From Escherichia coli (GTDB lineage Bacteria; Pseudomonadota; Gammaproteobacteria; Enterobacterales; Enterobacteriaceae): a stretch of 64,000 bases of DNA. Shown one piece after another: positions 8,140 through 8,258 of the stretch (positions are counted from its first letter, which is position 1; each line of letters starts with the position of its first letter). The DNA is taken from assembly GCF_003334385.1 (NCBI RefSeq), contig NZ_QOWN01000009.1; one strand, given 5' to 3'. The translations under genes were made by a program, and so were the position numbers. The notes under the pieces were generated by a model. That model saw only the letters and a list, made by a program, of their open reading frames with translations. It had not been told where the DNA came from and searched no databases.

Positions 8140-8168
8140 AGTGCGAATGAGAATGATTATTATTGTCT
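8140..8168 (+). promoter_or_regulatory. ryhB promoter with Fur box
   Basis: gaatgagaatgattattattg resembles the Fur consensus (GATAATGATAATCATTATC) and overlaps the promoter just upstream of the RyhB 5' end. Confidence 0.6.
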
Positions 8169-8258
8169 CGCGATCAGGAAGACCCTCGCGGAGAACCTGA
8201 AAGCACGACATTGCTCACATTGCTTCCAGTATTACTTAGCCAGCCGGGTGCTGGCTTT
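8169..8258 (+). ncRNA. ryhB: RyhB small regulatory RNA (Fur-repressed, iron-sparing response)
   Basis: About 90 nt matching the RyhB sequence as I remember it (GCGATCAGGAAGACCCTCGCGGAGAACCTGAAAGCACGACATTGCTCACATTGCTTCCAGTATTACTTAGCCAGCCGGGTGCTGGCTTTT), ending in its terminator hairpin and T-run; lies between yhhY and yhhX as in K-12. Confidence 0.9.

Follow-up and report, generated by a model that had tools for sequence, protein, structure and literature searches.

The intergenic region between yhhY and yhhX raises two questions in the 64-kb window analysed here, by which we mean the whole stretch of 64,000 nucleotides of Escherichia coli DNA: whether it holds a genuine copy of the gene for the small RNA RyhB, and whether that gene stands at the border between the core genome and the AT-rich accessory DNA found nearby. 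An initial annotation had answered yes to both. With regard to the first, a comparison of the window with all 4227 Rfam families at their gathering thresholds gave a single match, namely RyhB (RF00057), at 8199-8263 on the plus strand. With 83.1 bits (gathering score 55; E = 3.6e-14), this match lies well beyond chance and covers positions 1-67 of the 67 in the model, so that the search with the RyhB family model, which had been proposed as a check, came out on the positive side. Furthermore, positions 8170-8264 (+) are identical to ryhB (b4451) of E. coli K-12 MG1655 over 95 of 95 nucleotides (100% identity), and the complete K-12 spacer between yhhY and yhhX is found at 8049-8380 as an exact match (332/332 nt), in agreement with the position that had been assigned to the gene. 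In the curated MG1655 record (NC_000913.3), the ncRNA ryhB b4451 is listed at 3580922-3581016 of the minus strand, flanked by yhhX and yhhY. Given the exact match to both b4451 and its spacer, the ryhB gene found here is real and corresponds to the reference allele. The sequence contains nothing against its identity as RyhB, and we are close to certain that the unit at 8134-8264 (+) is chromosomal ryhB, from an E. coli resembling K-12, and that it works as a Fur-repressed, iron-sparing small RNA. Being base for base the K-12 allele, it is, as had been stated from the outset, a well-known feature rather than a new one, that is, an ordinary and already known copy of one of the best-studied bacterial small RNAs.

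The limits first given for the feature, 8140-8258, fall on the right locus, but they begin just after the -35 hexamer (8134-8139) and end inside the nine-T tail (8256-8264), and the full ryhB unit corresponds to 8134-8264. The remark that such a gene is easy to miss proved justified, as ryhB is present in the curated MG1655 record and absent from the automated RefSeq annotation of C600, O157:H7 2571, and FCI1. In the records of these three strains, no ncRNA is listed between yhhY and yhhX, though the sequence is there.

We consider it exceedingly improbable that the window holds a silent or decayed RyhB-like copy, no longer expressed or functional, since 7560-9418 matches the functional K-12 allele at every position, and the nearest differences from MG1655 are found at 6781 and 14043. 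Thus, the whole interval between these two positions, spanning yhhY, ryhB, and yhhX, is free of MG1655 differences. More generally, the window aligns collinearly with the reverse strand of MG1655 over 3525176-3589962, the identity being 99.93-99.95%, and the comparison with RyhB (also called SraI) of that strain yields the same transcript, spacer, neighbours yhhY and yhhX, promoter, Fur box, and terminator, with no difference in the gene itself.

The same alignment brought up some differences from MG1655 in other genes. For instance, the minus-strand gene rtcR carries a 10-bp deletion at 29930/29931, relative to MG1655 3559247-3559256. As the 532-aa RtcR regulator is split into two open reading frames, one of 436 aa (29599-30909) and the other of 202 aa (29321-29929), rtcR looks frameshifted in this strain. 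The glpR gene, on the other hand, is intact here as a 252-aa open reading frame (28581-29339, plus strand); in MG1655, one base is missing at the position corresponding to window 28731, and glpR is annotated as a pseudogene.

Upstream of the transcript, a consensus scan located a -35 hexamer, TGGACA, at 8134-8139 (+) and a -10 hexamer, TATTAT, at 8158-8163 (+), the latter 6 nt ahead of the 5′ end annotated at 8170. Separated by 18 nt, the two hexamers agree with the consensus at 10 of 12 positions and form the only promoter-like site in 7900-8500. Sites for Fur were sought with the 19-bp consensus GATAATGATAATCATTATC by counting mismatches, and the level expected by chance was obtained from shuffled sequences. 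The best site, GAGAATGATTATTATTGTC at 8149-8167, has 3 mismatches and is the only match with no more than 3 in the 64 kb, where shuffles predict 0.03. It lies over the -10 hexamer and ends 3 nt before the start site, which bears out the description of the promoter as resembling a Fur box. A second, weaker match with 5 mismatches (8143-8161) overlaps the main box with a shift of 6 nt upstream. In K-12, the ryhB Fur site has been reported to have 25.2 bits, to be centred at -15, to be overlapped by two weaker sites, and to give a positive gel shift, and the same fragment had earlier been recovered by in vivo Fur titration selection under the label "yhhX" (PMC2189734). The main box found here, together with the overlapping site offset by 6 nt, is thus in line with that published arrangement, in which a strong site is overlapped by two weaker ones (PMC2189734). 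A box placed over the -10 hexamer and running as far as -3 is, moreover, the geometry with which a bound repressor would occlude the promoter.

When up to 5 mismatches are allowed, the 64 kb contain the two sites at ryhB, one at 5202-5220 in the AT-rich islet, one at 41349-41367, and no others. The feoABC genes, which are regulated by Fur according to the literature, are within the same window (about 46450-49400, minus strand), and the window scan found no match to the Fur consensus with 5 or fewer mismatches upstream of feoA.

The transcript itself, whose start at 8170 was adopted from the K-12 annotation, occupies 8170-8264 (+) in its annotated form of 95 nt, and the plus strand from 8170 reads GCGATCAGGAAGACCCTCGCGGAGAACCTGAAAGCACGACATTGCTCACATTGCTTCCAGTATTACTTAGCCAGCCGGGTGCTGGCTTTTTTTTT. 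The 90-nt form of RyhB given in the literature would end at 8259, inside the U tail. Within the transcript, a core of 27 nt, GCACGACAUUGCUCACAUUGCUUCCAG (8203-8229, plus strand), is found as an exact 27-mer in other species, and it contains the octamer ACAUUGCU twice, at RyhB nt 39-46 and 48-55. The seed GACAUUGCU (RyhB nt 38-46; 8207-8215, plus strand) is complementary to positions -4 to +5 of the sodB mRNA, that is, across the AUG. We compared RyhB with the translation-initiation region of sodB, taken from the K-12 record, and the longest Watson-Crick block was 9 nt, a length reached by 8 of 1000 shuffled versions of RyhB. A full-length RNAduplex calculation, which ignores intramolecular structure, gave -34.8 kcal/mol for RyhB and sodB, a value in mid-field among 19 other initiation regions of the window. 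Its output consisted of long, unrealistic duplexes, and the test of exact complementarity was used in its place.

Downstream of the core, the A/U-rich spacer UAUUACUU (8230-8237, plus strand) leads to a Rho-independent terminator at 8238-8264 (+), formed by a stem-loop at 8238-8256 followed by nine T at 8256-8264. The stem has 7 bp (AGCCAGC/GCUGGCU), of which 5 are G-C pairs, and closes on a CGGGU loop; the terminator can therefore be called intact, as it had been. The predicted fold comprises a 5′ hairpin, a central imperfect stem-loop that displays the core, the unpaired A/U-rich spacer, and the terminator, and the spacer is single-stranded in the minimum-free-energy fold, in the centroid, and in the Rfam consensus structure alike. 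Measured on a single-sequence fold, the folding energy of RyhB showed no extra stability with respect to shuffled sequences (z = -0.59), and thus structure by itself would not have picked out ryhB. Short sRNAs with a long single-stranded seed commonly show stability no greater than that of shuffles, and in spite of this value the terminator and the stem that closes the core are still predicted. The ryhB terminator has been examined experimentally in a study that handles RyhB as an Hfq-binding sRNA, and its hairpin and U tail were presented as belonging to the Hfq-binding module (PMC4509938). From that report, we infer that the spacer at 8230-8237 may belong to the module as well (PMC4509938).

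These elements suggest how the gene would operate. When iron is ample, Fe2+-Fur dimers would occupy the Fur box at 8149-8167 together with the overlapping weaker site, and Fur lying over the -10 hexamer and out to -3 would exclude RNA polymerase. Under iron scarcity, Fur would be released and the sigma-70 polymerase could initiate at G8170, and termination at the hairpin and U run (8238-8264) would yield a transcript of roughly 90 nt. Hfq would then bind the 3′ part of this RNA (A/U-rich spacer, terminator hairpin, and U tail), and the single-stranded core, through nt 38-46 (8207-8215) among others, would pair with mRNAs of non-essential iron proteins at their translation-initiation regions, the proposed targets being sodB, sdhCDAB, acnB, ftn, and others. 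Such pairing would block the entry of ribosomes and lead to coupled decay by RNase E, the outcome being an iron-sparing response. The dependence of RyhB on Hfq, its coupling to RNase E, and its full set of targets are established knowledge, and RyhB is known to activate shiA as well. Its repression by iron and the classes of its targets have been reviewed (PMC4211561), and the Fur box, the Hfq-type 3′ end, and the complementarity to sodB found in the window fit this established model (PMC4211561). What was obtained here comprises the identity of the locus, its membership in the covariance model, the anatomy of the promoter, Fur box, and terminator, the complementarity to sodB, the conservation, and the synteny, and it is from the sequence that we infer expression of ryhB in this strain.

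Within the species, the locus is nearly universal. Of 5426 complete E. coli genomes, 5425 gave a match to a 336-bp query spanning the yhhY-yhhX intergenic region, in every case on the chromosome, and in 4712 the identity was at least 99%. This query, which is blind to siblings that share only the core, is found at a median of one place per genome and at three at most. Beyond E. coli, an exact-match scan for the 27-nt core, with one genome per bacterial species, returned at least 120 stretches, and the matches listed belong to Enterobacterales, Aeromonas, Vibrionaceae (Photobacterium, Aliivibrio, and Salinivibrio), and Zobellella. The Enterobacterales with the core include Citrobacter, Enterobacter, Klebsiella, Yersinia, Serratia, Pantoea, Photorhabdus, Xenorhabdus, Dickeya, Pectobacterium, Hafnia, and others, and many genera among the matches listed have two copies of it. 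Among these listed matches, 115 copies had enough flanking sequence for the Fur test, and 112 of them carry a match with no more than 5 mismatches within 110 nt upstream of the core, as opposed to 2 of 295 control segments taken from the same loci. A hairpin of at least 5 bp directly before a T run was found in 92 of the 95 distinct 3′ ends among the matches listed, and the stems include compensatory variants such as GCCAGC/GCUGGC, GCCCGC/GCGGGC, GCCGGC/GCCGGC, and GGGCCAG/CUGGCCC. As the 3′ regions differ by indels, these stems were classed sequence by sequence, which is distinct from a column-by-column count of covariation. The core, the Fur box, and the hairpin with its T run are thus retained in the manner of a conserved RNA gene under Fur control and with its own terminator, and not in that of a coding sequence.

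This pattern bears directly on the possibility that the region encodes a protein, as an open reading frame of 95 codons (8071-8358, plus strand) does run across the locus. The frame exists mechanically, but it crosses the promoter, the Fur box, the entire sRNA, and the terminator, and no CDS is annotated at 8071-8358 in the curated K-12 record or in the three RefSeq records. Its conservation is also of the RNA type: the 27-nt core is invariant, changes in the hairpin compensate one another, and the spacers vary in length in a way that would break the frame. The open reading frame was accordingly dismissed as a gene, and a coding function for the region seems to us so improbable as to be negligible.

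Two of the loci recovered in the core scan are doubled. In Salinivibrio costicola (locus L083, 10920-11253), the exact core is found twice on one contig, about 300 nt apart, and each copy is preceded by a Fur-like box of its own, 63 nt upstream, so that the two may be tandem sibling RyhB genes. The same doubled arrangement is seen in locus L087 (11696-12002+).

Seen against the known systems, the RyhB gene of the window takes its place in a graded series of relatives. Salmonella RfrA (RyhB-1) and Yersinia RyhB1 are orthologues in the same context, repressed by Fur and with a near-identical core (PMC4211561), and in our core scan the Yersinia copies adjoining yhhY have the exact 27-nt core, the Fur box, and the terminator. 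The 5′ regions of the Salmonella and Yersinia orthologues, in contrast, have diverged from that of E. coli ryhB, and both genera have an additional distal sibling (RfrB/IsrE and RyhB2, respectively), whereas E. coli has a single RyhB (PMC4211561). In Vibrionaceae and Aeromonas, RyhB shares with the present gene the exact 27-nt core and the upstream Fur box, but it lacks the synteny with yhhY and yhhX, and its flanks and terminators differ (for example, the GGGCCAG/CUGGCCC stems of Aeromonas). PrrF1 and PrrF2 of Pseudomonas, NrrF of Neisseria, and IsrR of Staphylococcus, known as "RyhB-like" sRNAs, are likewise iron-repressed and iron-sparing (PMC4211561), although they have no sequence homology to RyhB and fall outside RF00057.

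The neighbourhood of the gene is conserved to different degrees on its two sides. The divergent neighbour yhhY (7560-8048, minus strand) encodes a GNAT N-acetyltransferase, and yhhX (8381-9418, plus strand), which encodes an oxidoreductase, lies downstream in the same direction as ryhB; the gene of the window therefore has the position of the enterobacterial orthologue, divergent from yhhY and upstream of yhhX. Among the matches listed, a yhhY homologue was found divergently upstream in 48 of the 110 RyhB copies with enough flanking sequence, all in Enterobacterales, and the distance from its start codon to the RyhB core was 142-212 nt in these 48 copies (154 nt here). A downstream yhhX was seen in 24 of 87 copies, also among the matches listed, with a spacer of 75-1465 nt. 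Among Enterobacteriaceae, the spacer between ryhB and yhhX is variable while that between yhhY and ryhB is nearly constant (loci L010, L026, L104, L109, and others), and in other genera something is inserted 3′ of the ryhB terminator. It could be imagined that the conserved pairing of yhhY and ryhB reflects an undescribed functional coupling, in which the Fur cluster would also set the expression of yhhY through a promoter placed back to back with that of ryhB, or read-through of the terminator would make yhhX responsive to iron. We regard this as a long shot, a mildly open idea that is unlikely to prove new or important.

The second question concerns the AT-rich islet, which occupies 4919-7559, between the 3′ ends of ggt and yhhY, and has 33.5% GC against 51.9% for the window, with values of about 31-35% across roughly 5000-7500. 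Its genes are yrhB, yrhD, yrhA, and yhhZ; the 392-aa product of the last is annotated in RefSeq as a type VI secretion effector of the Hcp/TssD family, and yrhA lies downstream of yhhZ and overlaps it. In this strain, yrhA is intact, with an open reading frame of 164 aa at 5654-6148 (-), while in MG1655 it is interrupted by IS1E (3583428-3584195). The MG1655 alignment blocks overlap by 12 bases (5756-5767) at the point of the K-12 IS1E insertion, an overlap that may be taken to be the target-site duplication of IS1E viewed from the uninterrupted side. The islet is accessory, as 3758 of 5426 E. coli genomes carry at least 80% of its sequence.

ryhB had been described as sitting directly beside this islet and as marking the core-genome boundary of the accessory DNA, and neither statement survives the comparison of genomes. 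Between the islet and ryhB lies yhhY, with 51.7% GC, which leaves 610 bp from the islet edge to the transcript start. In relation to an O157:H7 genome, the breakpoints of the islet fall at 4918, just past the stop of ggt, and at 7560, in the stop codon of yhhY. In O157:H7 2571, the same site holds a different AT-rich segment, with 31.8% GC and a DUF4225 gene, and in FCI1 the site is empty, with ggt followed by a 59-bp spacer and yhhY; the order yhhY-ryhB-yhhX is unchanged in these two strains and in the window. The site between ggt and yhhY thus exists in at least three states in E. coli, namely the present cassette, the DUF4225 cassette, and the empty 59 bp. From the breakpoints and the empty site, it follows that the markers of the boundary are the convergent 3′ ends of ggt and yhhY, and the boundary assigned to ryhB was off by one gene.

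The possibility that ryhB serves as an attachment site or boundary marker for the AT-rich DNA has some appeal in general terms, as tRNA, tmRNA, and some sRNA genes are sites of island integration, often with a 3′ fragment of the gene duplicated at the far end, and a variable 2.6-kb segment of such low GC content does lie within 610 bp of ryhB. Nonetheless, the breakpoints against O157:H7 are at the ends of ggt and yhhY, away from ryhB; the empty site of FCI1 keeps yhhY, ryhB, and yhhX intact; and the adjacency of yhhY and ryhB is kept in the 48 copies across Enterobacterales mentioned above. In addition, apart from the four islet genes known from K-12, the islet has only short ORFs, and an integrase is annotated at the islet in neither RefSeq record of the locus. 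Accessory DNA joined directly to ryhB, as would be found at an integration site, is not seen in the window, where yhhY lies in between, or at the empty site of FCI1. We therefore judge such a function highly improbable; ryhB lies 610 bp into the core side, with no sign that it acts as a boundary or as a site of integration.

On the practical side, these results illustrate that a scan of the sequence can recover a genuine non-coding gene that was left out of three RefSeq records. As for the accessory DNA of this region, analyses of the islet should use 4919-7559, without considering ryhB as its integration site, and treat it as a segment bounded by two convergent gene ends.
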